From the NCBI GenBank assembly GCA_043761585.1, contig JAYUNN010000035.1, positions 32,706-96,705 of the forward strand: 64,000 nucleotides of DNA, written 5' to 3'. Below the pieces are notes generated by a model. That model had not been told where the DNA came from, searched no databases, and saw nothing but the letters and a program-made list of their open reading frames with translations. Source of the DNA: a bacterium (lineage in GTDB: Bacteria; Patescibacteriota; JACMRA01; JAYUNN01). Below are positions 4,328 through 47,400 of this stretch, in pieces. Position numbers and translations under genes: made by a program. Numbering within the stretch: the stretch's first letter is position 1; each line of letters opens with the position of its first letter.

Positions 4328-5788
4328 ATGCTGGTCAAAATCAAGGGTGCAACAATCAAAACTCTTAAAAAATTTTTAACCCCAGAAACTTTACGGCGGT
4401 TTCGACCTTTCTATCATGGTCTAAGAGCCCTAACAGCCTCCACAGTGTACGGAAACCCAGGTAAAAAACTAAAACTAATTGGTATCACTGGCACCAAAGG
4501 CAAAACTACCACTACGGTTTTCTTAGGTCGACTTTTAAATCTTTCTGGCTATAAAACCGGCTATATCTCCTCAGCCATAGTCAACCAAGGCGACTTCGAG
4601 CTCGGTAAATTTAATTCAGGTTTCACATCTAGCGGCGAGACCTTAAATAAATTTAAAATGAGTACTGCTGATACTTGGGAAATGCAAAAAACCTTGGCTC
4701 AAATGCTCCAAAATGGCTGCGAGTATGCGGTTATCGAGATGACTAGCCAAGGTCTTGAGTCGAATCGACACCTTGGATTAGGCGGCTTTAACGCCACTAT
4801 TTTTTTAAATATGTTTCCCGAGCATCTCGACGCGCACGGTGGGCTGGAAAATTATAAAAAAGCCAAAGCAGTTTTACCTCAAAATACTCGCTTAAATGGT
4901 ATTTTTATTTCCGATTTAGAGGCTGATCACCTAGACTACATGCTCAAATCGATTGAGGATCGCCGAGATTTAAAGCGAGTTTTAATAGATTTCAATAATT
5001 CTAGTAAAACTATAGCCGATCTCAAAGAATTTAACTTCAACGAACTCGAAAAATTTAAGATTGAACAAAATCTCAAAAGTTATCAGATTTTAAATTATCA
5101 GGGTAAAAAAGCCGAAACCAATTTTTTAGCTAGATTTGATGCTCTAAATCTAGGCTTTGCTTGGGTGACTATGCTCCAACTTGGGTTGAAACCAGATTTA
5201 CTAAAGCTATCTCAAGTCTGGGGTGTACCAGGGCGCATGGAGTGGGTAGTGCGAAACGGTCAAAAAATCTATCAAAGCCAACACCGAAGTAGTAAAATTT
5301 TGAAAATTAATCCAGGTTTGTCGATTATGGTTGACTATGCTCACGAAACCGAGAGCCTAAGACAGCTGCTGGAAACCTTGAATAAGCTCAAACTAAATAA
5401 AGACTTTGATAAAATCGTGCATGTTTTCTCAGTGACTGGTAGTGGCCGAGATATTTGGAAGCGACCTCAAATGGCTAGGGTTACAGCTCAAATCAGTGAT
5501 TTGATAGTCTATACTAGCGAAGATCACGACGCTCAAGACGATTTAAATATTATTGAAACTGAGGTTTTAGAGTTTTTACGACAAAATCGGGCTAAAAAAG
5601 TAATCACGGAACCAGATAGGCTTAAGGCTTTAAAACTGGCCGTATCACAAGCCGAAATTGACTTTCCAAATCAAAAAGTTTTGATCGTCTCAACTGCTAT
5701 GGGCAGCCAGCAAGGCATGCAAACTGCGGCTGGAATAATAGAATGGGATGAGCGAGAAAAATGGCTCGAAGCACTGGAGTCAAATTAG
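4328..5788 (+). CDS. murE: Mur ligase, MurE-like (UDP-MurNAc-L-Ala-D-Glu:diamino acid ligase), short N-terminus
   Basis: P-loop IGITGTKGKTTT, the DYAHE motif, and a C-terminal TSEDHD region at the position of the MurE DNPR motif. Confidence 0.7.
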   Translation: MLVKIKGATIKTLKKFLTPETLRRFRPFYHGLRALTASTVYGNPGKKLKLIGITGTKGKTTTTVFLGRLLNLSGYKTGYISSAIVNQGDFELGKFNSGFTSSGETLNKFKMSTADTWEMQKTLAQMLQNGCEYAVIEMTSQGLESNRHLGLGGFNATIFLNMFPEHLDAHGGLENYKKAKAVLPQNTRLNGIFISDLEADHLDYMLKSIEDRRDLKRVLIDFNNSSKTIADLKEFNFNELEKFKIEQNLKSYQILNYQGKKAETNFLARFDALNLGFAWVTMLQLGLKPDLLKLSQVWGVPGRMEWVVRNGQKIYQSQHRSSKILKINPGLSIMVDYAHETESLRQLLETLNKLKLNKDFDKIVHVFSVTGSGRDIWKRPQMARVTAQISDLIVYTSEDHDAQDDLNIIETEVLEFLRQNRAKKVITEPDRLKALKLAVSQAEIDFPNQKVLIVSTAMGSQQGMQTAAGIIEWDEREKWLEALESN

Positions 5789-8382: not shown

Positions 8383-8913
8383 ATGAATCCAAAATTTTTA
8401 CCTATAATTACAATATTGGCTTTTACCGCATTGGGTGGCTGTGCTGTTTTGGGAGCACTCTGGTCGGTAGATCATGAAAAACTCCAAGCTGAAAATCAAC
8501 GCCTGCAGACTTTGGCGATTCAAGAACGTGACTACAAATCTCAGCTTCAAGAACTGCTCGACAACAATCTAAACTCATCCTCTGAGCTAGTCCAAGCCAC
8601 TGACACCTTGATCAAAGAAGTCAAAAGCTTGTCAACTCAGGTAAAAGGTAGTTTCAGGGTTTTAAATGGTAATGTGGAGCTACTGCCTGGAGTAAACGCT
8701 AAACTGTTAGAAAACACCCAGGCTCAAGTCGAAATTGAAATAGACAATACCGATGCCAAAATTACCTCATCTATCAAGCAAAAAGACAGTATTAACAATC
8801 GAGTCAACGCAATTTTTAGTGGCAGTGATCAAAATCAGCAGAACCGAGCCGATCCTCGAGAAGGAGTCCGTAGTCCTAGTCAGCTAAACAGCACGGACTC
8901 TAATAAAAAATAA
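8383..8913 (+). CDS. hypothetical membrane-anchored coiled-coil protein
   Basis: The N-terminal hydrophobic segment PIITILAFTALGGCAVLGAL is followed by a Q/E/L-rich helical region. Confidence 0.5.
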   Translation: MNPKFLPIITILAFTALGGCAVLGALWSVDHEKLQAENQRLQTLAIQERDYKSQLQELLDNNLNSSSELVQATDTLIKEVKSLSTQVKGSFRVLNGNVELLPGVNAKLLENTQAQVEIEIDNTDAKITSSIKQKDSINNRVNAIFSGSDQNQQNRADPREGVRSPSQLNSTDSNKK

Positions 8914-9787: not shown

Positions 9788-9912
9788 AATTTTTCTCTAA
9801 AACTAAAAAATACACTCGCTTAGAACAGTCTTAAAACTACAGCAAAATTTTAGATTTGTCAAGAAGATGGTTTCAAAGTCTTTTTTTAGAAAGAATTAAG
9901 GCTAAAACAAGT
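9788..9912 (-). repeat. intergenic element family X, reverse-oriented copy
   Basis: The plus-strand ctaaaaaatacactcgcttagaacag matches the reverse complement of the X 3' block (ccaaaaaatacctcgtttagagcag at 50700-50730). It lies just downstream of the minus-strand gene 9966..10574. Confidence 0.45.
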
Positions 9913-15753: not shown

Positions 15754-17259
15754 TTATTCTTGCACCATGCTAATTTTTGCACCTAGGCTATTTAGCCGTT
15801 CGGCGATTTGCTCATAGCCTCGATTGATTGAGTACACGTTGCGTAGCACTGACACACCGCTGGCTCCAAGCATGGCAATCAAAATGATAGTAGCTGGCCT
15901 AAGGGCAGGCGGACAGACCACTTGAGCTGCAGAGAAATGTGTGCCACCTTCAATATAAACTCGATGAGGATCAGCCAAAATCATGGATGCACCTAGTCTA
16001 GTTAGTTCCATAAAATAAATTGCCCGAGTCTCGTAGCTCCAGTCGTGAACCAGGGTCGTACCATCTGCTAGCGCCGCAATCGGCACGAAAAATGGTAGAT
16101 TATCCATGTTGATACCTGGGTATGGATTGCTGCAAATTTTATCAGGCAGAGCTTTGAGTTTGGATGGTTTAGTAGTGATGTCGACTAATTTGGTCATGCC
16201 ATTTTTAGAGATATAGGGCTTAGTTTTGGTGTATTTAAAACCCATTTTTTCTAGTTTTAAAAGCTCTAATGATAAAAAATCAATCGGGCAGCGGGTGATA
16301 GTTATACTACTTTGAGTGACTATAGCCGCCGTTAAAAACATCATGGTCTCAGTAGGATCTTCGCTATTGTAGTACTCCACATCCTGATCAATATTTTCTA
16401 CGCCATAGACAGTCATAGTCGAGGTACCGATACCGTCAACCCGCACACCTAACTTGATCAAAAAATTGGCGACCTCTTGAACCATGTAGTTAGCTGACGC
16501 AAATTTTATGGTAGTTTTCCCAGGTATTTTAGCTGCAGCTAGCAAAATATTTTCGCAAGCCGTGTCTCCAGCTTCGTACATAATTACTTCTGCGGCTTTA
16601 AGTTCACCAACTTTTATATCATAGGTGGTATTTGTGGTCTTGATTTTGACACCTAGGCTTTCTAGGCCGTACTGATGCGCAGTAATGCTGCGAGTACCCA
16701 GTTTGCAGCCTTGAGAGTTGGGAATTGAAAAATTTTTAAATAAATGAATTATTGGTCCGATAAACATTAAAATAGTCCTAGTTTTTCGGGCTGAATCAGC
16801 ATTTATACCACCCAGATTTAGCTCTTTGGGCGGAGTGATTTCTAAGCTTTTAAGATCTACCCATTTTGTCACCACACCGATACTTTCCATAACCTCTAAA
16901 ATACGATTAACCTCTTCAATTCTTGGAATTCCGTGCAGAGTAGTTTTACCCTTATTTAGCAAGCTTGCACAGAGCAAACCCATGGCACCATTTTTGGAAG
17001 TATTGGTTTCGATCGTGCCGCTGAGTTGGTGACCACCTTCAATTTTAAAGTCCATCGAACTTTTAATAGTAATAAATTTACGATTTAAAGCTTGGCTTAT
17101 TTTAGTTAGCATTTCAGTGGAAAAATTTTGCTCACCTTTCTCCATTCTAGCTATAGCACTTTGACTGGTACCTAAAAGCTCTGCAAAATCAGCCTGAGTC
17201 AACTCTTTTTGCTCGCGTAGATCTTTGACAAAAGTAGCGATCTTACCCTGTAATGACAT
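15754..17259 (-). CDS. murA: UDP-N-acetylglucosamine 1-carboxyvinyltransferase (MurA) with an N-terminal XRE-type HTH domain
   Basis: Residues 1-65 are LREQKELTQADFAELLGTSQSAIARMEKGEQNFSTEMLTKISQAL (HTH_3 pattern). The remainder matches MurA: SGTIETNTSKNGAMGLLCASLL, and the catalytic Cys context QGCKLGTRSI. Confidence 0.85.
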   Translation of the reverse strand: MSLQGKIATFVKDLREQKELTQADFAELLGTSQSAIARMEKGEQNFSTEMLTKISQALNRKFITIKSSMDFKIEGGHQLSGTIETNTSKNGAMGLLCASLLNKGKTTLHGIPRIEEVNRILEVMESIGVVTKWVDLKSLEITPPKELNLGGINADSARKTRTILMFIGPIIHLFKNFSIPNSQGCKLGTRSITAHQYGLESLGVKIKTTNTTYDIKVGELKAAEVIMYEAGDTACENILLAAAKIPGKTTIKFASANYMVQEVANFLIKLGVRVDGIGTSTMTVYGVENIDQDVEYYNSEDPTETMMFLTAAIVTQSSITITRCPIDFLSLELLKLEKMGFKYTKTKPYISKNGMTKLVDITTKPSKLKALPDKICSNPYPGINMDNLPFFVPIAALADGTTLVHDWSYETRAIYFMELTRLGASMILADPHRVYIEGGTHFSAAQVVCPPALRPATIILIAMLGASGVSVLRNVYSINRGYEQIAERLNSLGAKISMVQE

Positions 17260-25288: not shown

Positions 25289-27772
25289 ATGAATATGGAT
25301 AAACAAGTTCAAGATTTTGAAGTAGAGAATATGCTAGAAAACTGGCAAAAAACCCCCCTTCAGCCTACGACTTGGCTAGCGGCTAAGGATCGAATTTGGT
25401 CAAAAATCTCAGCTAAAACCTTGAACCTGGACACTGATTCACAATTTTCAAATCTACAAAGTAAATCTCCTATGTCATCAGAAAATCCCCAAAGTGATCT
25501 AAGTACAATCCAAACTACTAGCTCTAATAAACTCAAAAATCCTAAACCGTGGTTTTTGCAACCCCTCAATCTATCACTAATTAGCTTAGCTATGATTTTG
25601 ATAATAGGTGGCGGTGCTGGATTAGTTTACTTAAATCAATCTAATCAAAAATTAAATGAGCAGCTGGCTTTGCGAAAAGAAATGAAAAACTCAAAAACTG
25701 CCCTAAACCCAATTTCTAAAACAGATTTAAGCTTAGATGAAATTCGTGGACTCGCCACCATCAAACTAAGCAACTACACCAATGGTGCCAGTTTGGATGA
25801 GATTCAAAGCTCATCGAGCAAAAATGTAGCCACGCAACCAAACACCACTGGCGGCTTAGGTGGCGCTGGAGCTCCTGTTGCAAACCCCACATCAATAAAA
25901 AAAGAAGTTCAGACTCCGACCTCAGAAGCTTTAGTCAAAGAAAAGGGGATAGTTGATAAAGTTGTGTACTATACGGAAAATTTGAATACTGAAACGAATG
26001 ATGGCATCGCGTTTCCCTTTTTGAAAAATGTGCCAGGCTTTGACATAAATAAACCCGTCAAAACTCAGTCATGGACATCAGCTAATTACTCCAAATATAT
26101 CACGAGTCAAGACGGTAAAATATTTTCTTACAATATCTACACACCTGAATATAGTGTCGATTTTAAAGGTGGAAAATATGCTGTTAAGGAAATCTTTGAT
26201 CAGAAATTGTTTTTGTCAGGTTTTTCTCAGGATGTTCCCAACACCGAACTAAGCTCGTTAAAATCAATTTTGAGCGACGCTTCTCTTAAAGACAGTGGTA
26301 GGCAAGATATTGATGGTAAAAACTACAAGGTTTTAGAGACGGATACAGCTAAGATGGCTACTGATCCAAATTCTAATGACAATAATATAACAACCACTAA
26401 ATACTATCTCGACACAGCTAAGCTGAGTGTATTTAGAGTCGAATATTACACTAATAAAATTTTAGTATCAAGTAGCACTCAAACCAACTATCAAGAATAC
26501 AAAGATCCGAATCTAAGCGAGCTTTTTGGCGTGTCAGACCTAGGTCAGACCGAGATCAAGACGGTCAAGCGTCCAGTTTATCAAGACAGTATCAACGACC
26601 TTTCTGATATTAGTAAAAAAATGGCTCTATATGTACCTGCTAATGTCACCGAAAAGGAATTAAAAATGAGCTTCAGTGCTTATAATACTTCGTATTATGA
26701 CAGTTCAGAGATTGATCAGTTGACTAACACCAAAGATTTTGATCCAAGTTTGGATGACACCTATCTCAAAACTTCGCTAAATCCTGCGGTCGCCGAGTAC
26801 TATTTAAACAATTTTTTTAGCAGCGCGTATCGAAAACCAGTCATATCAGAAGAAGGTCTTAAAATCAAACTCCAGCGAAATCAAACCATCAAACTGGACG
26901 GTAAAGACACTGCCGCAGTTTACAAAGAGGTTTATTCCGAAGGTCAAGAAATCTTCTACCAACTTGAGTTTGAAAGTCCAGATGGGCTATGGTATAAGAT
27001 TAGCGAATATCCGTCTAATCTTCCAGTTGGTCAGGCACCAGTATTAGCCCAATCCAAAAACATCAAACTTACAAAACTAAGTTCTGATCTAGTAGATAAA
27101 ATCACCAACTTTCAAAAAGATAGAAGTGCTAGTTTTGCTGACATAGACTCTGAGTCCAAGCTAGAAGATATTTCTAAAAATATTCGAATTTTACCTGGAG
27201 ATCTAAGTAAAGACTATAAAATATCACTCTATATGGTTTCAAAATCTAGAAAAGTCGGCTCTGCTTCAAAGTGTGAGAAGTACTTGGATTCTGGTTATAG
27301 TTTAATTGGCTGTCTAATCGAGCAATACAATGGTTTTACACTAAATTTTTATGAAAAATATGATTCAAATATCGCCTTTAGTAGCACTGTTGGAGCAAAT
27401 TCAATAGGGCCAAAAGATTTGAATTTCAGCGTGCTCGATACCAAGTTTGAAAATTTAGACTTAGCTAAATATGCTAAGCTAATCACAGAAAATACACCGC
27501 TTTCGACTCAGAATACCAGCAGCAGTATTAGTGGCGATGAGAAGATTAAGGAATTTAACTATAATGATGGCTACACTAATATGACTATTTATTTCAGTGC
27601 CTATAAAGACAAGACTATCGTCATTTCCAGCTCATCTCTAGTTAGAGCTCAACTTTTAGATATACTAAAAAAATCTGATTTCGATCGGGATCTAAATGTT
27701 TTGCTAGCTCAAATCAAAGAGAGTAAGATGCCAATTTCGGATCCTAAACCAATTTTTGATTTAAATAAATAG
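25289..27772 (+). CDS. large single-pass membrane protein, candidate anti-sigma/sensor partner of the adjacent sigma factor
   Basis: It starts 35 nt after the sigma gene. A short cytoplasmic N-terminus and a TM (LSLISLAMILIIGGGAGLVYL) are followed by a ~700-aa extracytoplasmic region with no recognised motif. The function is inferred from position only. Confidence 0.55.
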   Translation: MNMDKQVQDFEVENMLENWQKTPLQPTTWLAAKDRIWSKISAKTLNLDTDSQFSNLQSKSPMSSENPQSDLSTIQTTSSNKLKNPKPWFLQPLNLSLISLAMILIIGGGAGLVYLNQSNQKLNEQLALRKEMKNSKTALNPISKTDLSLDEIRGLATIKLSNYTNGASLDEIQSSSSKNVATQPNTTGGLGGAGAPVANPTSIKKEVQTPTSEALVKEKGIVDKVVYYTENLNTETNDGIAFPFLKNVPGFDINKPVKTQSWTSANYSKYITSQDGKIFSYNIYTPEYSVDFKGGKYAVKEIFDQKLFLSGFSQDVPNTELSSLKSILSDASLKDSGRQDIDGKNYKVLETDTAKMATDPNSNDNNITTTKYYLDTAKLSVFRVEYYTNKILVSSSTQTNYQEYKDPNLSELFGVSDLGQTEIKTVKRPVYQDSINDLSDISKKMALYVPANVTEKELKMSFSAYNTSYYDSSEIDQLTNTKDFDPSLDDTYLKTSLNPAVAEYYLNNFFSSAYRKPVISEEGLKIKLQRNQTIKLDGKDTAAVYKEVYSEGQEIFYQLEFESPDGLWYKISEYPSNLPVGQAPVLAQSKNIKLTKLSSDLVDKITNFQKDRSASFADIDSESKLEDISKNIRILPGDLSKDYKISLYMVSKSRKVGSASKCEKYLDSGYSLIGCLIEQYNGFTLNFYEKYDSNIAFSSTVGANSIGPKDLNFSVLDTKFENLDLAKYAKLITENTPLSTQNTSSSISGDEKIKEFNYNDGYTNMTIYFSAYKDKTIVISSSSLVRAQLLDILKKSDFDRDLNVLLAQIKESKMPISDPKPIFDLNK

Positions 27773-28050: not shown

Positions 28051-30375
28051 ATGTCTACCCAAAATCAATTACCATCAATTACCCTTTTTGACACATATTT
28101 AAGGCAAAACGTTAGCTTGAATATGGAAAATACAGTCGTTCCAGGCACTATAAAAATGTATTCCTGTGGCCCGACCGTGTATGGATATCAGCATATTGGC
28201 AATATGCGTGCAGTTTGGCTACCAGAGACGATCGCAAACCTAGCTAAAATGGCTGGTTACGAGGTGGAATGGGTCTCAAATATCACCGATGTTGGTCATT
28301 TGGTCGATGACGGTGATGACGGTGAAGATAAACTAGAAAAAGGTGCCAAGCGTGACGGCAAAGATGTCAGATCGATAGTGGATTTTTATACTGATGATTT
28401 TATAGTGCAGTGCAAAACCTTGAATTTTGACTTACCTACAGGCAAAATGAACCCGAAAGCTACTGAGTATATCCAGGAGCAGATGATTTTGGCCTTAAGC
28501 CTACTTCGAGATCAAAAAGCCTACCTTTTAGAGGATGGTATTTATTTTGATAGCGATAAACTCAAAACTCAAAACTCAGAAAAAGCAACAAATAATCTTG
28601 AGAAAATTGTAGAAAAAATCCAAATATTAAAATCTAAAAAGAATCACAAGCCTTTTATAGTAGTTATTGATGGGCGAGCTGGAAGCGGTAAAAGTACCTT
28701 GGCTAAAGAAATCCACTCCCAAATCGATGATTCAAAATATTTCAATTTAGATGCTTATACAATTCGTGGTGGTAATTCATTTAATCAACTAAATATTGAT
28801 CAAACTTTTGAGGCAGACTTTGAAAATACGCAATATGAAACCGATCGAATTGCAGCGGAGATATTAAAAAATCAGGGCAGTTTAATCATTTTAGATGGTT
28901 GTTTTAGTTATAAAAATTTAGCTAATATTGAGATCGATTTTAAAATATGGGTCGAAGTAGACAAAGATACTGCCTTGGAAAGGGCATTGGCTAAAGAGCT
29001 CACAAAAGATCAAGACGCAAGTCTAGAAACGATCAAACTATCAAGTGTAAAATGTCAAGAAGCCGAAGATAGGTATATTTTGGAGTTTGACCCTAAAAAT
29101 AGGGCAGACCTAAGTATTTTTGCACGAAACCATAACTATGAAATTATTGAAAATATCAAAAACTACACTGGTCGCGACATCAAAAACACTACTAAAAATC
29201 CTGAAGATTTCGCACTTTGGAAATTTGTCGATGAGAAGAGTCTGCAAAAATGGCGAATGGGGGACTTTACTGGTGCAAATCAAATCATTGAGCAAATTAA
29301 AAATGCATCGAATTCACAAGACTTAATCCAAACTCCTATCAACCAACAACAAGAGAATAATCGAGTTTTTACTCAAACCTTGGATTTTGAGGCTTTGTAC
29401 AGTAGTTGGAGCTGTCCAGGTTGGCACTCTGAGTGCGTGGCCATGATTAGCCAGATTATCGGGTCAAAGCGATTTAGTTTCGTAAATCAAGTTAAAAATA
29501 GCCAGTCTGATATAGGTTCCAGTGAAATTAAGCGTGTAGAAAATATCAAAGCTGAAATAGATATTCACACGGGCGGCGAAGATCATATCGATATTCACCA
29601 TAAAAATGAGCGATTACAGTCTAAAGCCATGGGTTTTGAGCTCTCAAAATATTGGGTTCACAATAAATTTGTTACCGTAGATGCCAAAAAAATGAGTAAA
29701 AGTCTGGGAAATGTCTATACGGTTACAGGTAAATTTACCAAAACTGGCTTTTATAGCTTTGAAAATCCACCGATAAATCAATTTAACCCAGAGTTGAAAC
29801 ACCAAATCGCGAAAAAATATCTTGAACTTAAGCTTATCAAAAATGTTGCAGAAATAGACTGGGATAACTTTAAATTTGATCCTTTAGCATTTAGGATGCT
29901 GCTGATGGAACATCATTACACCGATCAAATGAATTTCACTTGGGACAAACTTTGGCAAAGTCAGATGAGACTTTGGGGGCTGCGCAAAGAGGCAGCTAAA
30001 CTACAAGATCAAAACTCCATCCAAAGTGCTCATAAATCAGTTAATTTTGAAAATCTACTTAGCATTTTAGCCAATAATTTAGATATTCCAAATTTTTTGG
30101 AAAAATATCATGCACTGCTAGTGCAGACAGCTCAAACAAATCAACTGGATAATATTTACACACTTGATTATCTAGACCAAAACTTCTTGAAGTTAAGCCT
30201 CTTCAGACCTCAAACAGAAGCAAAAATTCTTGATTTGGCCTCGATTCGTCAAAAATTTAAAGCGGAAAAAGACTATCAAAAATCTGATGAAGTTCGTGCT
30301 AAAATCCAAGAGTTTGGCTATCAGGTTGATGATTATTCTGTAGGTTGTGGACTTTGGTGGCGAGGCGATCGCTAG
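28051..30375 (+). CDS. cysS: cysteinyl-tRNA synthetase with a ~210-aa insertion containing a P-loop kinase-like domain
   Basis: HIGH motif (YQHIGNMR), DFALWKF, the zinc/active-site context CPGWHSECVAM, and KMSKS. Between YFDSDK and NPEDFALWK lie a Walker A (VVIDGRAGSGKSTLAKE), a Walker B-like segment (SLIILDGCF) and the Udk-like FKIWVEVDKDTALERALAKE. Confidence 0.85.
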   Translation: MSTQNQLPSITLFDTYLRQNVSLNMENTVVPGTIKMYSCGPTVYGYQHIGNMRAVWLPETIANLAKMAGYEVEWVSNITDVGHLVDDGDDGEDKLEKGAKRDGKDVRSIVDFYTDDFIVQCKTLNFDLPTGKMNPKATEYIQEQMILALSLLRDQKAYLLEDGIYFDSDKLKTQNSEKATNNLEKIVEKIQILKSKKNHKPFIVVIDGRAGSGKSTLAKEIHSQIDDSKYFNLDAYTIRGGNSFNQLNIDQTFEADFENTQYETDRIAAEILKNQGSLIILDGCFSYKNLANIEIDFKIWVEVDKDTALERALAKELTKDQDASLETIKLSSVKCQEAEDRYILEFDPKNRADLSIFARNHNYEIIENIKNYTGRDIKNTTKNPEDFALWKFVDEKSLQKWRMGDFTGANQIIEQIKNASNSQDLIQTPINQQQENNRVFTQTLDFEALYSSWSCPGWHSECVAMISQIIGSKRFSFVNQVKNSQSDIGSSEIKRVENIKAEIDIHTGGEDHIDIHHKNERLQSKAMGFELSKYWVHNKFVTVDAKKMSKSLGNVYTVTGKFTKTGFYSFENPPINQFNPELKHQIAKKYLELKLIKNVAEIDWDNFKFDPLAFRMLLMEHHYTDQMNFTWDKLWQSQMRLWGLRKEAAKLQDQNSIQSAHKSVNFENLLSILANNLDIPNFLEKYHALLVQTAQTNQLDNIYTLDYLDQNFLKLSLFRPQTEAKILDLASIRQKFKAEKDYQKSDEVRAKIQEFGYQVDDYSVGCGLWWRGDR

Positions 30376-38994: not shown

Positions 38995-40653
38995 ATGTTT
39001 CGCAGAATACTACTTGCATTTACGGATGCCGAATTGAGAACTAAACTTCTTAAAATTATATTGTTAATTTTGACTGCCAGATTTTTGGCACACATTCCGA
39101 TTCCAGTTTTAGGTATCCAAGATATTTCTGGAACTATAAATAATGATGCTGCTTTGAGTCTTTTAAATACCATTTCAGGTGGTGGATTCGGGCAACTTTC
39201 ATTTGTAATGCTCGGAATTGGACCCTATATTACTGCTTCAATTGTATTTCAACTTTTAGGTGTTTTATTTCCCAAAATCAAAGAAATTCAACGTGAAGAA
39301 GGTGAAACTGGGCGTAATAAAATCAATAAATGGACTCGCTGGCTAACTGTTCCACTGGCAGCAATTCAGGCTTGGGGAATTTTAAATTTCTTAGCTAGTG
39401 ATAACGGCTCAAACACACGAGTAGTTCTACCTAAAGTGTTGACTCCAGAGGGCGGAGCTATTACTAGTGAAAGCTTCTTATACTGGCTCGCTATCGTAGG
39501 TAGTATGGTAATCGGCTCACTAATAGTGATGTGGATTGGAGAAATTATTACCGAATATAAAATGGGAAATGGTATCTCGATCATGATTTTATCAGGAATC
39601 GTCTCAAAGCTTCCAGGAAGCATCTACAAAATTCTTTTTGGTAATCCAGATACTGGTACAACTGGCGTTATTTACAACTTATTTAAAGCTGTCTCCCGAA
39701 TTTTTACAAACCCTCAATCCTTGCTTAATTGGGACAAATGGAAAGGTTTTTGGAATACAAATTATTACTGGGCACCAACTAGAAATATAATTTTCTTCTT
39801 AGTTATCTTTTTGATTACTTTGACTTTCGTAGTATTTATAAACGATGCCGTTAGAAAACTTGTTATCATCTATTCTAGGCGTGGACACAACGAAGGAACT
39901 AGTCGAACTTTATCTCAAGTCAAGTCTGATTTGCCAGTTAAAGTCAACCAAGCCGGTGTAATCCCAATAATCTTCTCAGTATCTTTTATTTTATTCCCGT
40001 CTATTATTTCTAGATTTTTCCAAACTGCAAACCAGCAAGGATTACGGCAAGGTGCCAAAGCCGTTAGTGATTTCCTGAGTGCTGACTCAAAAATTGGTGC
40101 ACATTTCCTATCTTATCAAGTCTCAAACAAAGTCGAAGCTCTTAATGGTATCAAATTTGTGACTAACCCAACTACTTCTCAAAACTTTACTGGGTTAAGT
40201 TGGTTTGAAGGCTTTAATTGGTCAAAATTGAATATTGATTGGTTGCCAAGTTTCACTTGGACTTTCAATGGAATACTAGCGTACAACTTTTTCTACTTTT
40301 TCTTGATTGTATTTTTCACTTATTTTTACACTACCATCATTTTCAATACTGAGGAAATTTCTGAAGATTTGCAAAAAAATGGTGCTTATATTCCTGGGTA
40401 TAGACCTGGAGTTGAGACTTCAGATTATCTAAGTGGAGTATCAAATAGACTGAATGTAGCTGGTAGTTTTTTCCTTGCAATTATTGCTCTGATACCTTTA
40501 TTATTTTCAAATGCTATCACTTTTGGTGACAGTAATGTCAATGGAATTATTGGGGGGACATCACTTTTGATTTTAGTTGCGGTAACTATCGAGACTTTAA
40601 AACAAATTGAAACTCAGGCAATTTCTATCGATTATGATAGATTTGCTAAATAA
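38995..40653 (+). CDS. secY: preprotein translocase SecY, enlarged (552 aa)
   Basis: LLKIILLILTARFLAHIPIPVLG, SLLNTISGGGFGQLSFVMLGIGPYITASIVFQLL and NGAYIPGYRPG are SecY signatures. The protein has two extra loops relative to typical ~440-aa SecY. Confidence 0.85.
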   Translation: MFRRILLAFTDAELRTKLLKIILLILTARFLAHIPIPVLGIQDISGTINNDAALSLLNTISGGGFGQLSFVMLGIGPYITASIVFQLLGVLFPKIKEIQREEGETGRNKINKWTRWLTVPLAAIQAWGILNFLASDNGSNTRVVLPKVLTPEGGAITSESFLYWLAIVGSMVIGSLIVMWIGEIITEYKMGNGISIMILSGIVSKLPGSIYKILFGNPDTGTTGVIYNLFKAVSRIFTNPQSLLNWDKWKGFWNTNYYWAPTRNIIFFLVIFLITLTFVVFINDAVRKLVIIYSRRGHNEGTSRTLSQVKSDLPVKVNQAGVIPIIFSVSFILFPSIISRFFQTANQQGLRQGAKAVSDFLSADSKIGAHFLSYQVSNKVEALNGIKFVTNPTTSQNFTGLSWFEGFNWSKLNIDWLPSFTWTFNGILAYNFFYFFLIVFFTYFYTTIIFNTEEISEDLQKNGAYIPGYRPGVETSDYLSGVSNRLNVAGSFFLAIIALIPLLFSNAITFGDSNVNGIIGGTSLLILVAVTIETLKQIETQAISIDYDRFAK

Positions 40654-42690: not shown

Positions 42691-43674
42691 ATGAACACAA
42701 CTACTCAAATGCCATCAAACACTAACTATTTATTGACTCCAAACCCGCATAGATACGTGGTGTTTACCGAAGAAGCCATGCAAGTCGTAGTAGATATGTG
42801 CGACAAGCAGGAAGCAAATCTATGGCTCTCATCGGATATAAATTTGACTCAAGACTCTCAAGACTGGCTCAAAATGACTCCCTCTGAGCAATTTTATATC
42901 AAGCAGATCTTGGCTTTTTTTGCTGCTTCTGATGGTATCGTAGGTGAAAACCTAGCTATTAATTTTATCCATGAAGTGCAGGTACCAGAGGTGCGGTATT
43001 TTTATTATTTTCAGTCAATGATGGAAGCTGTCCACGCCAAAGTGTATTCACAATTGATAAATACCTTTATCGGTTCTGCTGCTGAGCGTAGCGAACTATT
43101 TGACTCGATCGAAACCAATCCAGTGATTGCCAAAAAAGCAGACTGGGCTTTTAAGTATATGAAGCCTAAAAATGCTGATTTTAGTACTAGATTACTGTCA
43201 TTTTTAGCTATTGAAGGGATTTTTTTCGCGGGTTCTTTTGTGGCTATTTTTTGGCTGCGAGATCGTGGTATTTTAGCCAATTCTCTAGGTGTTGCCAATG
43301 AATATATTTCACGCGATGAGACGCTACATGCCGAGTTTGCCTGCACTCTCTACAATGAATTTTGTCACGACCTCAGTGAGGACCAGATTAAAGCAGTCTT
43401 ACTTTCAGCGTTAGATATTGAAAAAGAATTTATTGCTCACGCTTTACCAGATCGCATGTTTGGGATGAACGCCGAGATGATGATTCAGTATTTGGAATTT
43501 GTGACTGACACTTGGTTGGAGGCTTTGCACTGTCAACGAGTCTTCAATGTCAAACAACCATTTGCTTTTATGGAAACTATCGGGCAAAAACGCAAAGACA
43601 ATTTCTTTGAGAAAAGTAGGACAAACTACGCCAGAAATACTGAAAATAAGCAGTTGGATTTTGCTTCACTTTAG
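42691..43674 (+). CDS. nrdB: class I ribonucleotide reductase small (R2/beta) subunit
   Basis: Di-iron/tyrosyl motifs: FFAASDGIVGENL, MEAVHAKVYS, LAIEGIFFAGSF and RDETLHAEF. Confidence 0.9.
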   Translation: MNTTTQMPSNTNYLLTPNPHRYVVFTEEAMQVVVDMCDKQEANLWLSSDINLTQDSQDWLKMTPSEQFYIKQILAFFAASDGIVGENLAINFIHEVQVPEVRYFYYFQSMMEAVHAKVYSQLINTFIGSAAERSELFDSIETNPVIAKKADWAFKYMKPKNADFSTRLLSFLAIEGIFFAGSFVAIFWLRDRGILANSLGVANEYISRDETLHAEFACTLYNEFCHDLSEDQIKAVLLSALDIEKEFIAHALPDRMFGMNAEMMIQYLEFVTDTWLEALHCQRVFNVKQPFAFMETIGQKRKDNFFEKSRTNYARNTENKQLDFASL

Positions 43675-43692
43675 GTAAAACATAACTGATTT

Positions 43693-44241
43693 ATGGGAAC
43701 TCTTACGCATTTTAAAAGATCTGCAACTACCCCGAAAGCTTCGCCTTCACCCCTAAATAGGGGTACGAGTACTGCCACTACAAATAGTACCCCTTTCAAG
43801 GGGTCAGAGCGGAGCTTTCGGGGTTGTGCCGAGCTTGCACCAGAGGTAATAGCTCTATTTCAAAGAACTCACTATAACAAAAGTCTTTTAAATAGGTCGA
43901 AGAACATGTCGCGAACCATGACAAAAGCTGAAAGTCGAATCTGGTTTGATTTGCTATCCAAAAAACAGTTACTCGGTTTAAAATTTATCAAGCAGAAAAT
44001 CGTTTTTAGTTATATATTAGACTTTTACTGCTCTGAGCTGTCTCTAGCCATAGAAATCGATGGAGAAAGCCACGATGCAAAGCTTGATTATGACAAAACT
44101 CGAGACAATTACATTAAGGCTTGTGGTATAAATGTTATAAGATTAAGTAATCATGATGTTTTTGGGAATTTAGAAGGGGTTAGGGAGTTTTTGATTGAGG
44201 AGGCGGGGAAGATTAAAAGTTTTAAAATTAATAAAACATAA
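43693..44241 (+). CDS. DUF559 (Vsr/PD-(D/E)xK-like) endonuclease-domain protein
   Basis: MTKAESRIWFDLLSKKQLLGLKFIKQKIVFSYILDFYCSELSLAIEIDGESHD...IRLSNHDV is the DUF559 core. The first ~45 codons are encoded by hairpin-rich DNA, so the true start is uncertain (next ATG at 43906). Confidence 0.7.
   Translation: MGTLTHFKRSATTPKASPSPLNRGTSTATTNSTPFKGSERSFRGCAELAPEVIALFQRTHYNKSLLNRSKNMSRTMTKAESRIWFDLLSKKQLLGLKFIKQKIVFSYILDFYCSELSLAIEIDGESHDAKLDYDKTRDNYIKACGINVIRLSNHDVFGNLEGVREFLIEEAGKIKSFKINKT
43729..43824 (+). other. ~95-nt three-way-junction-like structured element at the 5' end of the DUF559 ORF
   Basis: An outer 15-16 bp stem (43730-43744 with 43809-43823, one U:G on the plus strand) encloses hairpins acccctaaataggggt (43749-43764) and acccctttcaaggggt (43789-43804). 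Confidence 0.6.
43786..43830 (+). repeat. left arm of an inverted repeat bracketing the DUF559/HEPN-motif cassette
   Basis: agtacccctttcaaggggtca (43786-43806) is the exact reverse complement of 44748-44768. Roughly 15 of the next 24 inward positions also match. Confidence 0.75.
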
Positions 44242-44248
44242 CTAATTT

Positions 44249-44722
44249 ATGCTTAATTTTTTATTGGAAGAAATTAATAATTCACTTGATACAGGGAACT
44301 ATTATGTTGCTCTTGTATCTGCGTTAACCGCAATTGACATTGCTACATCTTATGAAAATAGTGGAAATACTACTAAGGATTTGTTTGTTAAATGGTTTGA
44401 GGATAATTTACAAAATAAATATACCGTTAAATTCACCAATGACCTAAAAGTTTTTCTCAATGGGGCTGATTGCTACGCTTTGAGGTGCAAGGTTTTGCAT
44501 TGTGGCTCAGACTTTACAGGTGACCAAAGAGCTTCTGATGTACTGGAGAAATTTAAATTTACGACTGCCAATGCGCATAATAATTTTACAGAATTTAATG
44601 GTAAATCAAGATTACAATTAAATGTGAAATGGTTTTGTACTGATGTTGTTAATTCAATTTCAAGTAAACGTTATCCCATACCGTCAAATGCATTAATTAT
44701 TTATAACGACATAAATTTCTAA
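44249..44722 (+). CDS. hypothetical protein with a HEPN-like Rx4H motif
   Basis: A 157-aa ORF starting 7 nt after the DUF559 stop. The predicted helical protein contains ALRCKVLHCG (R-x4-H). No other motif was recognised. Confidence 0.5.
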   Translation: MLNFLLEEINNSLDTGNYYVALVSALTAIDIATSYENSGNTTKDLFVKWFEDNLQNKYTVKFTNDLKVFLNGADCYALRCKVLHCGSDFTGDQRASDVLEKFKFTTANAHNNFTEFNGKSRLQLNVKWFCTDVVNSISSKRYPIPSNALIIYNDINF

Positions 44723-44723
44723 A

Positions 44724-44768
44724 GCTACAACCCCCAAGCCTTCGGCTTGACCCCTTGAAAGGGGTACT
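44724..44768 (-). repeat. right arm of the inverted repeat bracketing the cassette
   Basis: tgaccccttgaaaggggtact (44748-44768) is the reverse complement of 43786-43806. The hairpin aagccttcggctt is adjacent. Confidence 0.75.
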
Positions 44769-44823: not shown

Positions 44824-47400
44824 ATGTTTGTTAAAACCTCCACCGGTCTTGAATCAGTTGATTTCAATAAAATCTTGAAAAAAATTGCTAAATACAGTGC
44901 TGGCTTAAATCAGAAAGTTGATCCTGATTTAGTGGCTCAAAAAACCATTCAAAGTATGATTGACGGCATTTCTACGGCCGAACTAGACAATCTCTCTGCT
45001 GGAATCGCGGCTAATTTCACCAATGTTCATCCAGATTATTCGATTTTAGGAGCAAGACTACTGGTCAATCGCCTGCATAAACAGCTTGAAATTGGCAGTC
45101 GCACATTTACTCAAAATCTGGCTAGAATGTATAACCAAGTCACGCACGGTAAAAAATCTAGTCGAGTTTCTAAGGAGATGTACGAATTTTGTGTTAAGTA
45201 TGAAAATGAAATCGAGGCTATGATTGATTATGATTTGGATTATGATAACTATGATTATTCGGCGATCATGTCATATATTAAAAGTAGTTTGCGTAAAATT
45301 GAAGATGAAACTGCTGAATCTCCGAGCCAGATGTTTATGAGAGTTGCGATAGGTTTGCATATCCCAAAAAAACGTCCTGAGGCAGAGTTGGATAAAATCG
45401 AGGCCTACGCTGGGTTTAGACCTGAGAAATATCGGCTGATGGAGCTAACCGACGAGCAAAGACTGGCTGAAATATACCGCTATTATCGCCAACTAGCTGA
45501 GCGTAAAGTCTCACCTCAGAGTCCGATTATCGTACATGCTGGTAGCGACCTAAATCAAATGCCAAGCTGCTATTTACAGTACTGCGGTGACTCGCTTACG
45601 GGCGATGACTACTATACTGATGGCGTCGTAAAAGGCATCATGGGCTCACTGACACAGATGGCGGCTCAAGGTAAATCTGGCGGTGCTACAGGTGTAAATA
45701 TTTCAGATTTGCGCTCTAAAGGTAGCTATATCGCCAAAACTGGGGGTACCTCCAATGGTATCTTGCCATTTATGAAAATGTTTGATGCTTCTATTTCAGC
45801 TATCGACCAAGGTGGTCGGCGTGCTGGAGTCTGCACACTATATCTAGAACCATGGCACAAAGATGTTTTGGATTTTTTGGATGCGGGAGATCACTTTACA
45901 GTCGAAGAAAAACGCTGTAAACATATTTTTTACGCTCTTTACACCAACGATTTGTTTTTTAAACGACTGATCGAGGGTCAAAATAACGCCAAATGGACCA
46001 TTTTTGATCCGGCTGACGTGGTAGCTCGGCTCGGTCACTCACTCACTGATGTATACGGTCAGCAGTTTGAACAGGAATACGAACTACTCGAAAGTGAGGG
46101 GATCGGACAAACCATACCTTTAATGGAGATCTGGAATCGGGTTTGCAAGCTAATCCAAATCAGTGGTAATCCCTATCTGGTACATAAAGACAGTATAAAT
46201 AGCAAATCAAACCAGCAAAATATCGGGGTAGTCAAAGGTTCTAATGTGTGCTGTGAGGTGACACTGGTTTCAAATAGCGATGAAACTGGTGTATGTGTCC
46301 TATCTTCGATATCTCTACCTCGCTACATCGATCCTGTGACCTTAGAATTTGATTTTGATGCTCTGATCGAGACAGGAGGTCTAACCACTCGCAGCCTCAA
46401 TAATGTGCTTGATATTCAGCATTATCCTACGCCTGAAACTAGAAATTCGTGCATGTCTAGTCGAGCTATTGGTGTGGGAGCTCAAGGTTTGGCGGATGTA
46501 TTTGCTATTTTAAAAATGGATTTTGATAGTTCTGAAGCTAAAAGTTTGAATAAAAAAATCTACGAATGTATTTACTATGGCTGTATGCGTGAAAGTATGG
46601 AGCTAGCTAAACTGGAAGGCGCTTATAAATATTACCCAGGTTCGCCAGTTTCAAAGGGAGTTTTGCAATACGATATGTGGGGCCTCAAAGAAGCAGATTT
46701 ATTTTTAGGAGCCAAATGGGTTGAGCTAAAAGAAGAGATCGCTAGATATGGTGTCAGAAACAGTGAAGTGACCGCGCTCATGCCCACTGCTAGTAGCTCG
46801 ATCCGAATGGGCAACAATGAAATGCACGAACCATTTACTCGAAATATATACATTCGCCAGTATATCGGCGGTTCGGTTCGGGTAATCAATCGCTACTTGG
46901 TCAACGATCTAACTGAGCTAGGACTTTGGAATGAGCAGCTTTGTAACCAAATCATCTGGGCTGATGGTAGCGTCCAGGGGATAGCCGCGATTCCAGCTGA
47001 GATTCAGGCTCGATATCGCACCGCCTACGAGCTAGACTTTAAGACTATGATTGATTTGATGGCCGATCGCAGTCCGTTTGTATCACAAGCTGCGTCACTA
47101 AATCACTTTATTACTTTTGAGGCCAGTGGTCCGACCGCCTTTACGCAGCGGGTAATTTACGCCTGGAAAAAAGGCCTCAAGACCCTTTCATACTACATGC
47201 ACACCGAGACCGCCTCGACAGCTAAAAAAGAACTCGGTGGCTTATCTAGTCAAATCCAAAACCCAGCCAGTGAACCAGCTTTTGCATCGAATCTGCGAGT
47301 ATCACAAAAACTAAATATACCTGAGCACCTCGACCAAATCCAAACCTTAGAAGCAGGGGAGCTCGATGCCCTACAGGACTGTGAGAATTGTTCTAGTTAG
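44824..47400 (+). CDS. nrdA: class I ribonucleotide reductase large (R1/alpha) subunit with N-terminal ATP-cone
   Basis: Active-site GSNVCCEV, the radical-transfer SYYMHT, and a C-terminal CENC redox tail. Confidence 0.9.
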   Translation: MFVKTSTGLESVDFNKILKKIAKYSAGLNQKVDPDLVAQKTIQSMIDGISTAELDNLSAGIAANFTNVHPDYSILGARLLVNRLHKQLEIGSRTFTQNLARMYNQVTHGKKSSRVSKEMYEFCVKYENEIEAMIDYDLDYDNYDYSAIMSYIKSSLRKIEDETAESPSQMFMRVAIGLHIPKKRPEAELDKIEAYAGFRPEKYRLMELTDEQRLAEIYRYYRQLAERKVSPQSPIIVHAGSDLNQMPSCYLQYCGDSLTGDDYYTDGVVKGIMGSLTQMAAQGKSGGATGVNISDLRSKGSYIAKTGGTSNGILPFMKMFDASISAIDQGGRRAGVCTLYLEPWHKDVLDFLDAGDHFTVEEKRCKHIFYALYTNDLFFKRLIEGQNNAKWTIFDPADVVARLGHSLTDVYGQQFEQEYELLESEGIGQTIPLMEIWNRVCKLIQISGNPYLVHKDSINSKSNQQNIGVVKGSNVCCEVTLVSNSDETGVCVLSSISLPRYIDPVTLEFDFDALIETGGLTTRSLNNVLDIQHYPTPETRNSCMSSRAIGVGAQGLADVFAILKMDFDSSEAKSLNKKIYECIYYGCMRESMELAKLEGAYKYYPGSPVSKGVLQYDMWGLKEADLFLGAKWVELKEEIARYGVRNSEVTALMPTASSSIRMGNNEMHEPFTRNIYIRQYIGGSVRVINRYLVNDLTELGLWNEQLCNQIIWADGSVQGIAAIPAEIQARYRTAYELDFKTMIDLMADRSPFVSQAASLNHFITFEASGPTAFTQRVIYAWKKGLKTLSYYMHTETASTAKKELGGLSSQIQNPASEPAFASNLRVSQKLNIPEHLDQIQTLEAGELDALQDCENCSS

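Follow-up and report, generated by a model that had tools for sequence, protein, structure and literature searches.

A cysteinyl-tRNA synthetase of a patescibacterium with a Udk/PRK-type P-loop kinase nested in its connective-peptide domain

A 64,000-nt stretch of patescibacterial DNA (GTDB lineage Bacteria; Patescibacteriota; JACMRA01; JAYUNN01; assembly GCA_043761585.1, contig JAYUNN010000035.1, positions 32,706 to 96,705), hereafter the window, was found to encode a cysteinyl-tRNA synthetase (CysRS) in which a P-loop kinase of the Udk/PRK family is nested within the connective-peptide (CP) domain. The host gene, cysS, occupies positions 28051-30375 of the forward (+) strand, on which all features of this gene are given, and consists of a single open reading frame (ORF) of 774 aa plus stop. 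An earlier note, made from the letters of this DNA, had described a Udk-like P-loop kinase in the CP region at 28558-29190 (aa 170-380), and hidden Markov model, profile and fold searches all agree with that description. The nested architecture and the family of the insert are established by these searches. For the protein as a whole we lean, if only slightly, towards an explanation in which a working CysRS carries a tethered, autonomous nucleoside or small-metabolite kinase that was gained by lineage-specific in-frame insertion.

The reading frame runs uninterrupted through 28051-30375 (+), with no stops or frameshifts despite the AT-rich gene, and each of the motifs that the earlier note had quoted for an intact 774-aa CysRS was recovered. 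The Pfam profile PF01406 matched the ORF in three stretches (E 2.2e-47, 162 bits against a cut-off of 27), TIGR00435 matched it in four (E 4.6e-58, 197 bits against an equivalog cut-off of 340), and NF011108 scored 213 bits on the whole ORF against an equivalog cut-off of 780. The equivalog cut-offs for CysRS are missed because the inserts break the match into three to four pieces; PDB 3sp1 aligns with aa 33-204, 496-558 and 603-641 of the 774 residues. The first zinc-ligand Cys, C39, and the HIGH signature are found in CGPTVY (aa 39-44) and HIGN (aa 48-51; together 28165-28203), which are near-invariant among 107 CysRS sequences. The second zinc-ligand Cys and the Trp of the cysteine pocket are found in CPGWHSECVAM (aa 455-465, 29413-29445), in which P456 to C462 are invariant, and the His and Glu zinc ligands are among the invariant residues of IDIHTGGEDHIDIHHKNE (HTGGEDH..HHKNE at aa 506-520, 29557-29610). 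The KMSKS loop (aa 547-551, 29689-29703) is conserved in relatives, including the set of 107 homologues, and the remaining CysRS motifs, YFDSDK (aa 165-170) and NPEDFALWKF (aa 383-392), stand on either side of the insert. In the alignment the zinc/cysteine pocket is complete, with C39, C462, H516/H517 and E520 all invariant; these residues presumably correspond to C28, C209, H234 and E238 of E. coli CysRS. An AlphaFold2 model of the full protein, built from the 107-sequence alignment, had a mean predicted local distance difference test (pLDDT) score of 86.8, and its top Foldseek match was E. coli CysRS in complex with tRNACys (1u0b_B, E 1.8e-20, TMt 0.74). Further CysRS structures (1li5, 3tqo and 6ujd) matched with TMt 0.76-0.80, with the helical and anticodon-binding domains included. 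Judged from the conserved pocket and the predicted fold, the host protein is most likely a working CysRS that charges tRNACys in the normal way.

The boundaries of the insert were set by comparison with the nearest insert-free CysRS of the Candidate Phyla Radiation (CPR; P0011, P0019 and P0023), and enclose aa ~171-370. The insert takes the place of a linker of ~20-30 aa between 'DGIYFDS' and 'NYTGRDI', at the tip of the CP domain. In the window protein, 338 aa separate HIGN from DFxLWK, compared with 147-176 aa in insert-free relatives, and the net gain in length from this first insert is ~170-180 aa; the ~210 aa proposed in the earlier note were rightly located and overestimated in size. Homology to the insert-free relatives restarts exactly at NYTGR, where the CP domain resumes (NYTGRDI...NPEDFALWKF, 29161-29226). 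An N-terminal tether (aa 171-182, 28561-28596), which is without counterpart in the insert-free relatives, was modelled with a pLDDT of ~65 for aa 171-180, and a C-terminal tether (aa 363-372, 29137-29166) falls in a region with a pLDDT of ~49-51 (aa 361-380). Junctions of such low confidence around a well-predicted module (pLDDT 88-96 within the full protein) fit a domain that is held, in the predicted structure, on flexible tethers.

Signs of an intein were sought in the insert. No Hint or intein family was matched in Pfam, and the junctions read ...YFDSD/KLKTQ... and ...IIENIK/NYTGR... (the slash marking the boundary); with neither splicing motifs nor a Hint domain found, an intein was rejected. 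The lack of splicing motifs indicates that the insert remains in the mature protein. Homology to the editing domains of LeuRS, IleRS or ValRS was not seen at aa 170-380 among the Pfam and NCBIfam matches, and an editing domain was rejected because the fold is that of a P-loop kinase. CysRS has no editing domain, and the 'editing/CP position' of the earlier note is apt in a topological sense only.

A second, smaller expansion (aa 402-454, 29254-29412) lies between DFALWKF and CPGWHSEC and is partly disordered in the model (pLDDT 45-64). The DFxLWK-to-PGWH spacing is 70 aa in the window protein, ~21 aa in PDB 6ujd and 41-49 aa in the nearest relatives. The earlier note had recognised this expansion and put it at ~60 aa; it amounts to ~49 aa extra relative to ordinary CysRS, and to only ~22 aa within its own lineage. 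Two more small expansions, at aa ~474-500 (29470-29550) and aa ~560-608 (29728-29874), are partly disordered in the model, and the latter is common to many relatives ('FYSFENPP...KKYxELK'). All three small expansions are specific to the lineage.

The kinase module proper (aa 183-367, 28597-29151) consists of an N-terminal helix, a five-strand core, a lid, and a C-terminal helix and hairpin, as defined by the model and by the fold and profile matches. An AlphaFold2 model of the insert alone had a pLDDT of 92.0 and a predicted template-modelling (TM) score of 0.88. Its best Foldseek matches were the uridine kinase of T. thermophilus (3asy/3asz), PanK (1esm), 1rz3 and UCK2, all with probability 1.00 and TM scores of 0.5-0.64; the Udk matches had TM scores of 0.57-0.64, compared with 0.41 for Pnkp1 at rank 41. 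Family profiles were less specific. Pfam returned generic P-loop matches (AAA_18, NB-ARC and APS_kinase), with PF00485 (PRK) at 18.9 bits against a cut-off of 22. The NCBIfam matches were PRK06547 (E 2e-10 to 2.6e-10, 40 bits against a cut-off of 173) and the uridine kinase profile PRK05480 (E 3.7e-10 to 4.6e-10, 39 bits against a cut-off of 180), along with related families named as kinases, and TIGR00235 (uridine kinase) scored 29 bits against a cut-off of 220. The module is a family-level relative of Udk/PRK, and should not be named a uridine kinase.

A single-sequence search of the insert against PDB returned nothing significant (best E 0.02), and a word-indexed homologue search with the insert alone returned two matches; the wider family needed a profile search. 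The first profile was made from 11 module sequences and searched against 1.84 billion representatives with a threshold of E<=1e-10, at which the family comprises 2,065 cluster representatives, mostly stand-alone proteins of 180-215 aa. An alignment of 120 family members (A4) was then consistent in its affinities, with 120 of the 120 matching PRK06547 and 116 matching uridine kinase. The A4 profile scored 135.5 bits on the window protein over aa 185-361. Against PDB it matched 1RZ3 with E 4.5e-32, and uridine kinases, phosphoribulokinases, UCK1/2 and NRK1 at 1e-18 to 1e-26. The entry 1RZ3, a 'possible uridine kinase' of B. stearothermophilus, is the closest solved relative and is itself uncharacterised. 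Neither PSTK nor polynucleotide kinase (PNK) was present among the 60 best PDB profile matches, which were dominated by Udk, PRK, NRK, PanK and DPCK. The analogy to PSTK-type tRNA kinases drawn in the earlier note finds no affinity in this profile search, and nothing beyond the weak fold match to Pnkp1.

The three motifs on which the earlier note had based its kinase assignment were all located in the insert. The Walker A motif or P-loop, IDGRAGSGKST (aa 206-216, 28666-28698), has its D, three G and K residues invariant both in 11 and in 14 module sequences, and the insert and its Walker residues, whose sharing by orthologues the earlier note had proposed to check, are conserved among them. 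The strand LIILDG (aa 278-283, 28882-28899) is Walker-B-like and ends in [DE]G, with the G invariant and the acidic residue conserved as D or E. The segment FKIWVEVDKDTALERALAKE (aa 297-316, 28939-28998) forms strand 4 and the lid helix with Arg310, which corresponds to the near-invariant R137 in the numbering of the module alignment A2 (from which D60, R137 and R141 are taken); the second lid Arg, R141, is a Lys in the window sequence only. Between the P-loop and LIILDG, the motif NLDAYT (aa 232-237, 28744-28761) aligns with the 'lDdF/Y' motif of Udk, PRK and NRK and supplies Asp234 as the candidate catalytic base. Asp234 (A2 D60) is invariant in A2 and occurs in 90% or more of the 120 family members; we take it to be the equivalent of the Udk catalytic Asp, partly by reference to Asp62 of UCK2. 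The likely counterpart of the Udk substrate hairpin is FEADFENTQYE (aa 253-263, 28807-28839), as judged from the alignments, with a pLDDT of 63-68 in the full model. The C-terminal 'AD' is also invariant or near-invariant across modules from every context. The insert is 58-61% identical to those of P0002-P0004, whereas the identity is 57-61% for the CysRS C-terminal domain and 74-79% for the N-terminal core. Since the insert is as conserved as the C-terminal domain of its host, the module appears to be under purifying selection, and it looks, from its sequence, catalytically competent.

Orthologues that bear the insert (P0002-P0007) were found at 50-62% identity and full coverage in independent ENA, JGI and Logan assemblies. 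The locus of P0004 is syntenic with the window, with a sigma-70-like gene followed by an 834-aa ORF and then CysRS, and the two CysRS halves on either side of the insert stay in register in the alignment. In the window, the positional counterpart of the 834-aa ORF is an 827-aa ORF without Pfam match at 25289-27772 (+), immediately 5′ of cysS. The earlier note had listed an assembly chimera as a possible refutation, and the only point for this, or for a mis-called fusion of two genes, is that the source is a metagenome-type assembly. Both are ruled out by the single ORF, the synteny and the independent recurrence in other assemblies and samples, such that the probability of an artefact is next to nil.

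The insert is one of several kinds of module that occupy a few loops of CysRS in this lineage. Among the 120 best CysRS homologues, 16 are longer than 700 aa, and the long homologues carry DUF559, HAD, Y1_Tnp, NUDIX or Ser-hydrolase domains. The insertions fall at the tip of the CP domain (site 1), between DFxLWK and PGWH (site 2), between PGWH and HxGG (site 3), or after KMSKS. Site 1 is empty in P0024, holds the kinase in P0007 and holds a HAD domain in P0029, three sister proteins with identities of 71-73%. By neighbour-joining, the site-1 kinases split into four or more module clades, among which stand-alone, MurB and SHMT modules are interspersed; the kinase-bearing CysRS took at least four separate places on the core tree, and the module and host trees were incongruent. 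P0005 has cores that are 60-72% identical to those of the window protein and a kinase that is only 31% identical, which suggests, at the sequence level, that its module was replaced. Locus L169, which holds the P0024 gene, and L086, which holds a partial CysRS, share ~1.17 kb of flanking DNA at 89-93% identity; L086 bears the site-1 kinase, whereas L169 is without it. Near-identical alleles with and without the kinase point to recent gain or loss, and the allele that lacks it indicates that the module is dispensable for aminoacylation and that CysRS works without it. That the kinase is dispensable for CysRS and subject to turnover is, on these sequence comparisons, quite probable. Throughout the window clade (P0001-P0005), the kinase insert is kept.

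The same module is found in other hosts and on its own. In ArgRS P0214 it lies between the catalytic and DALR domains. Serine hydroxymethyltransferase (SHMT) P0142 has two nested copies together with an APH-like domain, and in MurB P0152 and P0156 the kinase lies within the FAD-binding domain, accompanied by HAD, GrpB and APH-like domains. In CysRS P0163 it occupies a different loop, with a Y1 transposase and an APH-like domain, and P0141 and P0158 are free genes in which an APH-like or a nucleotidyltransferase domain is the fusion partner of the kinase. For ArgRS and SHMT, the chromosomal surroundings are ordinary. In P0142, P0152/P0156, P0214 and P0163 (metagenomic proteins; loci L165 and L166), up to ~750 aa of foreign domains are contained within one housekeeping enzyme. 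Many taxa represented in GTDB, among them Peribacillus, Glutamicibacter and Saccharibacteria, have free-standing members of the family. Pipelines usually call proteins of this family 'uridine kinase'. The presence of the module in ArgRS, SHMT and MurB, and its mostly free-standing occurrence, argue against chemistry that is specific to CysRS or to tRNA. The earlier note had called the architecture unusual, and these relatives show that it is not a one-off: the module is interchangeable at the same loops, and the automatic JGI/IMG label for P0009, P0008 and others is already 'cysteinyl-tRNA synthetase/uridine kinase', meaning that the same architecture has been recognised by a pipeline.

Three further loci illustrate these surroundings. 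On a contig of Candidatus Saccharibacteria (L002, 3998-5389), the free kinase and APH-like gene P0141 (463 aa) has restriction-modification-like ORFs on one side and ABC-2 transporter genes on the other, and its kinase groups with the modules nested in the CysRS of P0006, P0007 and L086. The stand-alone kinase P0286, which shares 45% identity with the window module, belongs to a ~5-kb stretch of L167 (513-6299) that also holds stand-alone NUDIX, Ser_hydrolase and AAA_33 genes among ORFs without Pfam match; the domain types of this stretch are of the same kinds as those nested in other CysRS. The partial CysRS of L088 contains a long ENSS low-complexity run, followed by a kinase closest to the MurB modules P0152/P0156, after which another domain starts.

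A possible vehicle for such insertions was recognised in the junction peptides of relatives. The peptides SPHEGWQAKPDGVF (P0004 site 1, beside the kinase) and PLLRGVSEGSGVD (P0004 site 4) were found to be translations of one GC-rich repeat of ~45 nt, which has the form CCCCT-N4-8-AGGGG, then a second hairpin of 4-6 bp, then GGGGT. The second stem stays paired in nine copies, though its sequence varies between copies. Copies were scored by a pattern-and-fold scan, as MAFFT with RNAalifold had recovered only the first hairpin and had misaligned the second stem. The orthologous locus of P0004 (L083) contains three copies within 10 kb (5083-5121, 8551-8587 and 9846-9880), two of which are translated in-frame inside CysRS, at the kinase N-junction and after KMSKS. 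In L086 (753-1213), a DUF559 nuclease domain (Vsr-like PD-(D/E)XK) is inserted in-frame at site 2 and is bounded by two inverted copies of the repeat, while the ~90% identical L169/P0024 allele has a single palindrome, GATTCCCCTTCGGTGAAGGGGAAT, at the empty site 2; the two alleles differ there by 444 nt, equal to 148 codons, and 17 nt are duplicated. Hairpin elements are also found in-frame at the CysRS junctions of P0008.

The window itself contains a free-standing mobile element of this type outside the CysRS gene, at 43722-44768, between nrdB and nrdA (the ribonucleotide reductase small subunit at 42691-43674 and large subunit at 44824-47400). Three double-hairpin copies were detected, compared with none in 100 shuffles. 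The element consists of a solo hairpin copy (43722-43765, from the double-hairpin scan), left and right terminal inverted repeats (TIRs) of ~43 nt (43783-43826 and 44726-44768) with identical outermost 21 nt, a DUF559 nuclease ORF (within 43693-44241, DUF559 E 7.9e-26) and a 157-aa cargo ORF (44249-44722) that matches phrog_18591. The annotated start of the DUF559 ORF (43693) runs through the repeats, giving the peptide TTPKASPSPLNRGTSTATTNSTPFKGSERSFRG, and the real start is probably a downstream Met. An element that inserts in-frame is demonstrably active in the lineage and is present in this genome.

In the explanation that we favour, two flexible tethers would hold a complete kinase of the 1RZ3/PRK06547-like subgroup at the tip loop of the CP domain, where it would act on its own. 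ATP would be bound at the Walker A loop through K214 and S215, Asp234 would serve as the base that deprotonates a substrate hydroxyl, and the lid residue Arg310 would close over the phosphates. The product would be a phosphorylated nucleoside-like compound or another small metabolite, with tRNACys and aminoacylation left untouched. Salvage-type kinase chemistry is plausible in ultra-small bacteria, in which de novo nucleotide synthesis is generally considered to be missing. Whether the module is an autonomous small-molecule kinase is, on its sequence relationships, an evenly balanced matter. In this lineage, a small number of surface loops in essential genes would be permissive sites at which entire enzyme modules are repeatedly gained, swapped and lost in-frame; after its gain, the kinase would have been retained by purifying selection in the window clade (P0001-P0005), and nesting in an essential, constitutively expressed gene would secure its expression and guard it against loss. 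The searches and comparisons directly show the architecture, the fold and family, the conservation of the motifs, the spread of the module over different hosts, its presence/absence polymorphism, and the in-frame DUF559/hairpin element of relatives and of this genome. Catalytic activity, the class of substrate, independence from CysRS and the route of DNA entry are what we infer in this account.

Delivery of the kinase by a mobile cassette is put forward only tentatively. In a broader form, of which we are equally doubtful, the kinase might be the domesticated cargo of so far undescribed, in-frame and non-spliced 'domain cassettes' that carry Udk-like kinases, HAD, NUDIX and APH-like domains and hydrolases among the loops of CysRS, ArgRS, SHMT and MurB in Patescibacteria. 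Such cassettes would associate with double-hairpin inverted repeats, DUF559 (Vsr-like) nucleases or Y1 transposases, and would use the essential gene as both a safe harbour and an expression platform.

Several observations weigh against these proposals. No hairpin or TIR copy was detected by the hairpin scan in 28051-30375, and there is no nuclease in the CysRS insert of the window. A search for direct and inverted repeats around the insert gave only short pairs at chance level (78-94% identity); one pair alone (28507-28524 and 29175-29192, 18 nt, 83%) lies on either side of the insert, and it was set aside as a probable chance match. With no hairpin, nuclease or convincing repeats at this insert, the route by which the kinase entered is inferred from relatives, and in one of these, P0008, the hairpins bound a DUF559 gene and adjoin the kinases rather than enclosing them. 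The GC content of the insert is 0.322, compared with 0.379 elsewhere in the gene, and its GC content at third codon positions (GC3) is 0.252 versus 0.350; as a sign of foreign origin this was rejected as too weak, with GC3 at the 6.7th percentile of comparable windows. The module and host trees were both made by neighbour-joining and are without support values. With regard to the proposed activity, the module scores below every curated kinase-family cut-off, and the hairpin FEADFENTQYE diverges, only partly fits the 'YDF/YDW' consensus and is of lower model confidence. Finally, most of the nested hosts are aminoacyl-tRNA synthetases, with CysRS the commonest, which leaves room for a link to tRNA or ATP chemistry.

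That last point is shared by a reading in which the kinase is directed at tRNA, either in the manner of PSTK (for example Ser-tRNACys to Sep-tRNACys) or in healing 5′-OH ends of tRNA or other RNA, together with HAD domains as a PNKP-type kinase-phosphatase. The CP location is topologically that of the class I editing domains, two of the four host types found (CysRS and ArgRS) are tRNA synthetases, kinase and HAD occur as a pair in P0009 and P0152, a combination also known from T4 and mammalian PNKP, and Pnkp1 is among the fold matches. The fold similarity to Pnkp1 is well below that to Udk, however, and the profile matches described above include neither PSTK nor PNK; SHMT and MurB also carry the module, most copies of which are free-standing, near-identical CysRS alleles are without it, and the intact zinc/cysteine pocket leaves no need of an indirect route to Cys-tRNA. 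We consider a tRNA-directed kinase very unlikely. A non-catalytic role, in which the domain would be an ATP or nucleotide sensor that tunes CysRS, or a stabiliser of the protein, is less improbable, and still unlikely. It is modelled on the Udk-like domain of S. pombe Tad2 (PMC8217354), whose structure, PDB 7eey, is matched by the family profile with E 1.6e-14; the divergence of the substrate-binding hairpin and the retention of the insert across the window clade are in keeping with it. However, conservation extends beyond the P-loop to the candidate catalytic Asp, the [DE]G and the lid Arg, more than mere binding or scaffolding would call for; flexibility is predicted for the tethers, and there are sister enzymes that have no insert or have HAD.

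The resemblance of the companion modules to resistance enzymes (APH-like, ANT-like and GrpB) invites the idea that the kinase, and likewise the APH-like, nucleotidyltransferase, HAD and NUDIX modules of relatives, inactivates at its target an inhibitor of nucleoside type that is aimed at the host enzyme, for instance a mimic of an aminoacyl-adenylate. Aminoacyl-tRNA synthetases, MurB and SHMT are classical antibiotic targets, and the free kinase and APH-like gene P0141 adjoins ABC-2 transporter genes (L002). This case is purely circumstantial, however: no specific resistance family was matched in PADLOC or NCBIfam, where Gar/GrdA reached only E 0.019, PADLOC and PHROGs scans of the kinase gave no informative match, and the family is widespread as a stand-alone gene annotated as 'uridine kinase'. 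Such target-tethered detoxification is quite unlikely, ranking between a sensor role and a tRNA-directed kinase. The patchy distribution and recent turnover of the module, its association with mobile elements in the lineage and a GC3 slightly under that of the rest of the gene would suit a functionless passenger, that is, selfish or neutral DNA that is tolerated and decaying. Yet the insert is conserved to the same degree as the CysRS C-terminal domain, no copy examined has lost any of the catalytic motifs, and the insert is free of stops and frameshifts in an AT-rich gene and confidently predicted to fold. A decaying pseudodomain was rejected on the grounds of this conservation, and a passenger is, if anything, slightly less probable than a tRNA-directed kinase.

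Compared with the Udk/PRK family (PF00485, 1RZ3 and PRK06547), the module has the same P-loop fold of the nucleoside-monophosphate-kinase-like type and the same order of Walker A, Asp-aromatic motif, [DE]G strand, Arg lid and C-terminal 'AD' strand; it differs in being nested in another enzyme, in scoring below cut-offs and in its hairpin, FEADFEN instead of YDF/YDW. Like the CP1 editing domains of the class Ia synthetases LeuRS, IleRS and ValRS, it is a whole folded domain in the CP region that splits the Rossmann fold. Those domains are universal, ancient and hydrolytic, and act on the 3′ end of tRNA, whereas the insert is lineage-restricted, swappable and dispensable, and has a kinase fold. 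The nearest precedent is the tRNA A34 deaminase Tad2 of S. pombe (PDB 7EEY), in which an N-terminal Udk/PanK-like P-loop domain is required for deaminase and holoenzyme activity, and is reported to show neither uridine/cytidine kinase nor pantothenate kinase activity and no tRNA binding (PMC8217354). Both are Udk-like domains of the same superfamily on a tRNA-processing enzyme. Unlike the terminal fusion in Tad2, the domain in CysRS is nested, its catalytic residues are conserved and its host works without it in close relatives. PSTK and T4-type polynucleotide kinase are also P-loop kinases in tRNA or RNA contexts; the module has no tRNA-binding extension.

Inteins, homing endonucleases and Rickettsia palindromic elements are in-frame selfish insertions. 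The elements described here resemble them in that mobile DNA enters conserved genes without destroying them, GC-rich palindromes are translated and a DUF559/Vsr-like nuclease is carried; they differ in that splicing motifs are lacking and whole metabolic enzyme domains are inserted, not only short repeats or nucleases. Vsr-like homing endonucleases have been described in 'fractured genes' (PMC2677866). A literature search on CysRS-kinase fusions and on in-frame insertions in CPR housekeeping genes found no paper that describes the architecture or the phenomenon.

Two other genes of the window have unusual layouts. At 15754-17259 (-), a MurA-like enolpyruvyl transferase (PF00275) has an N-terminal HTH_3 (XRE-type) DNA-binding domain, an unusual fusion. 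At 38995-40653 (+), a SecY of 552 aa has the 306 positions of the Pfam profile spread across residues 69-535, implying an excess of more than 100 aa over a typical SecY.

The CysRS of the window represents a natural class I synthetase whose CP loop accepts and swaps whole foreign enzymes, and it offers a test case for the modularity of the CP domain and for whether added catalytic domains become coupled to aminoacylation. If it were true that the kinase acts on tRNA or on a ligand of CysRS, it would represent a new type of synthetase-coupled chemistry. The hairpin/DUF559 element is a defined entity that has been caught in the act of in-frame insertion. Proteins of this kind fail equivalog cut-offs and are called 'hypothetical', and the nested enzymes go uncounted in metabolic reconstructions of salvage-dependent organisms. 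For the CPR/Patescibacteria, the findings point to an unusual route of genome innovation, in which accessory enzymes are nested in essential genes and are polymorphic for presence or absence in near-identical alleles.

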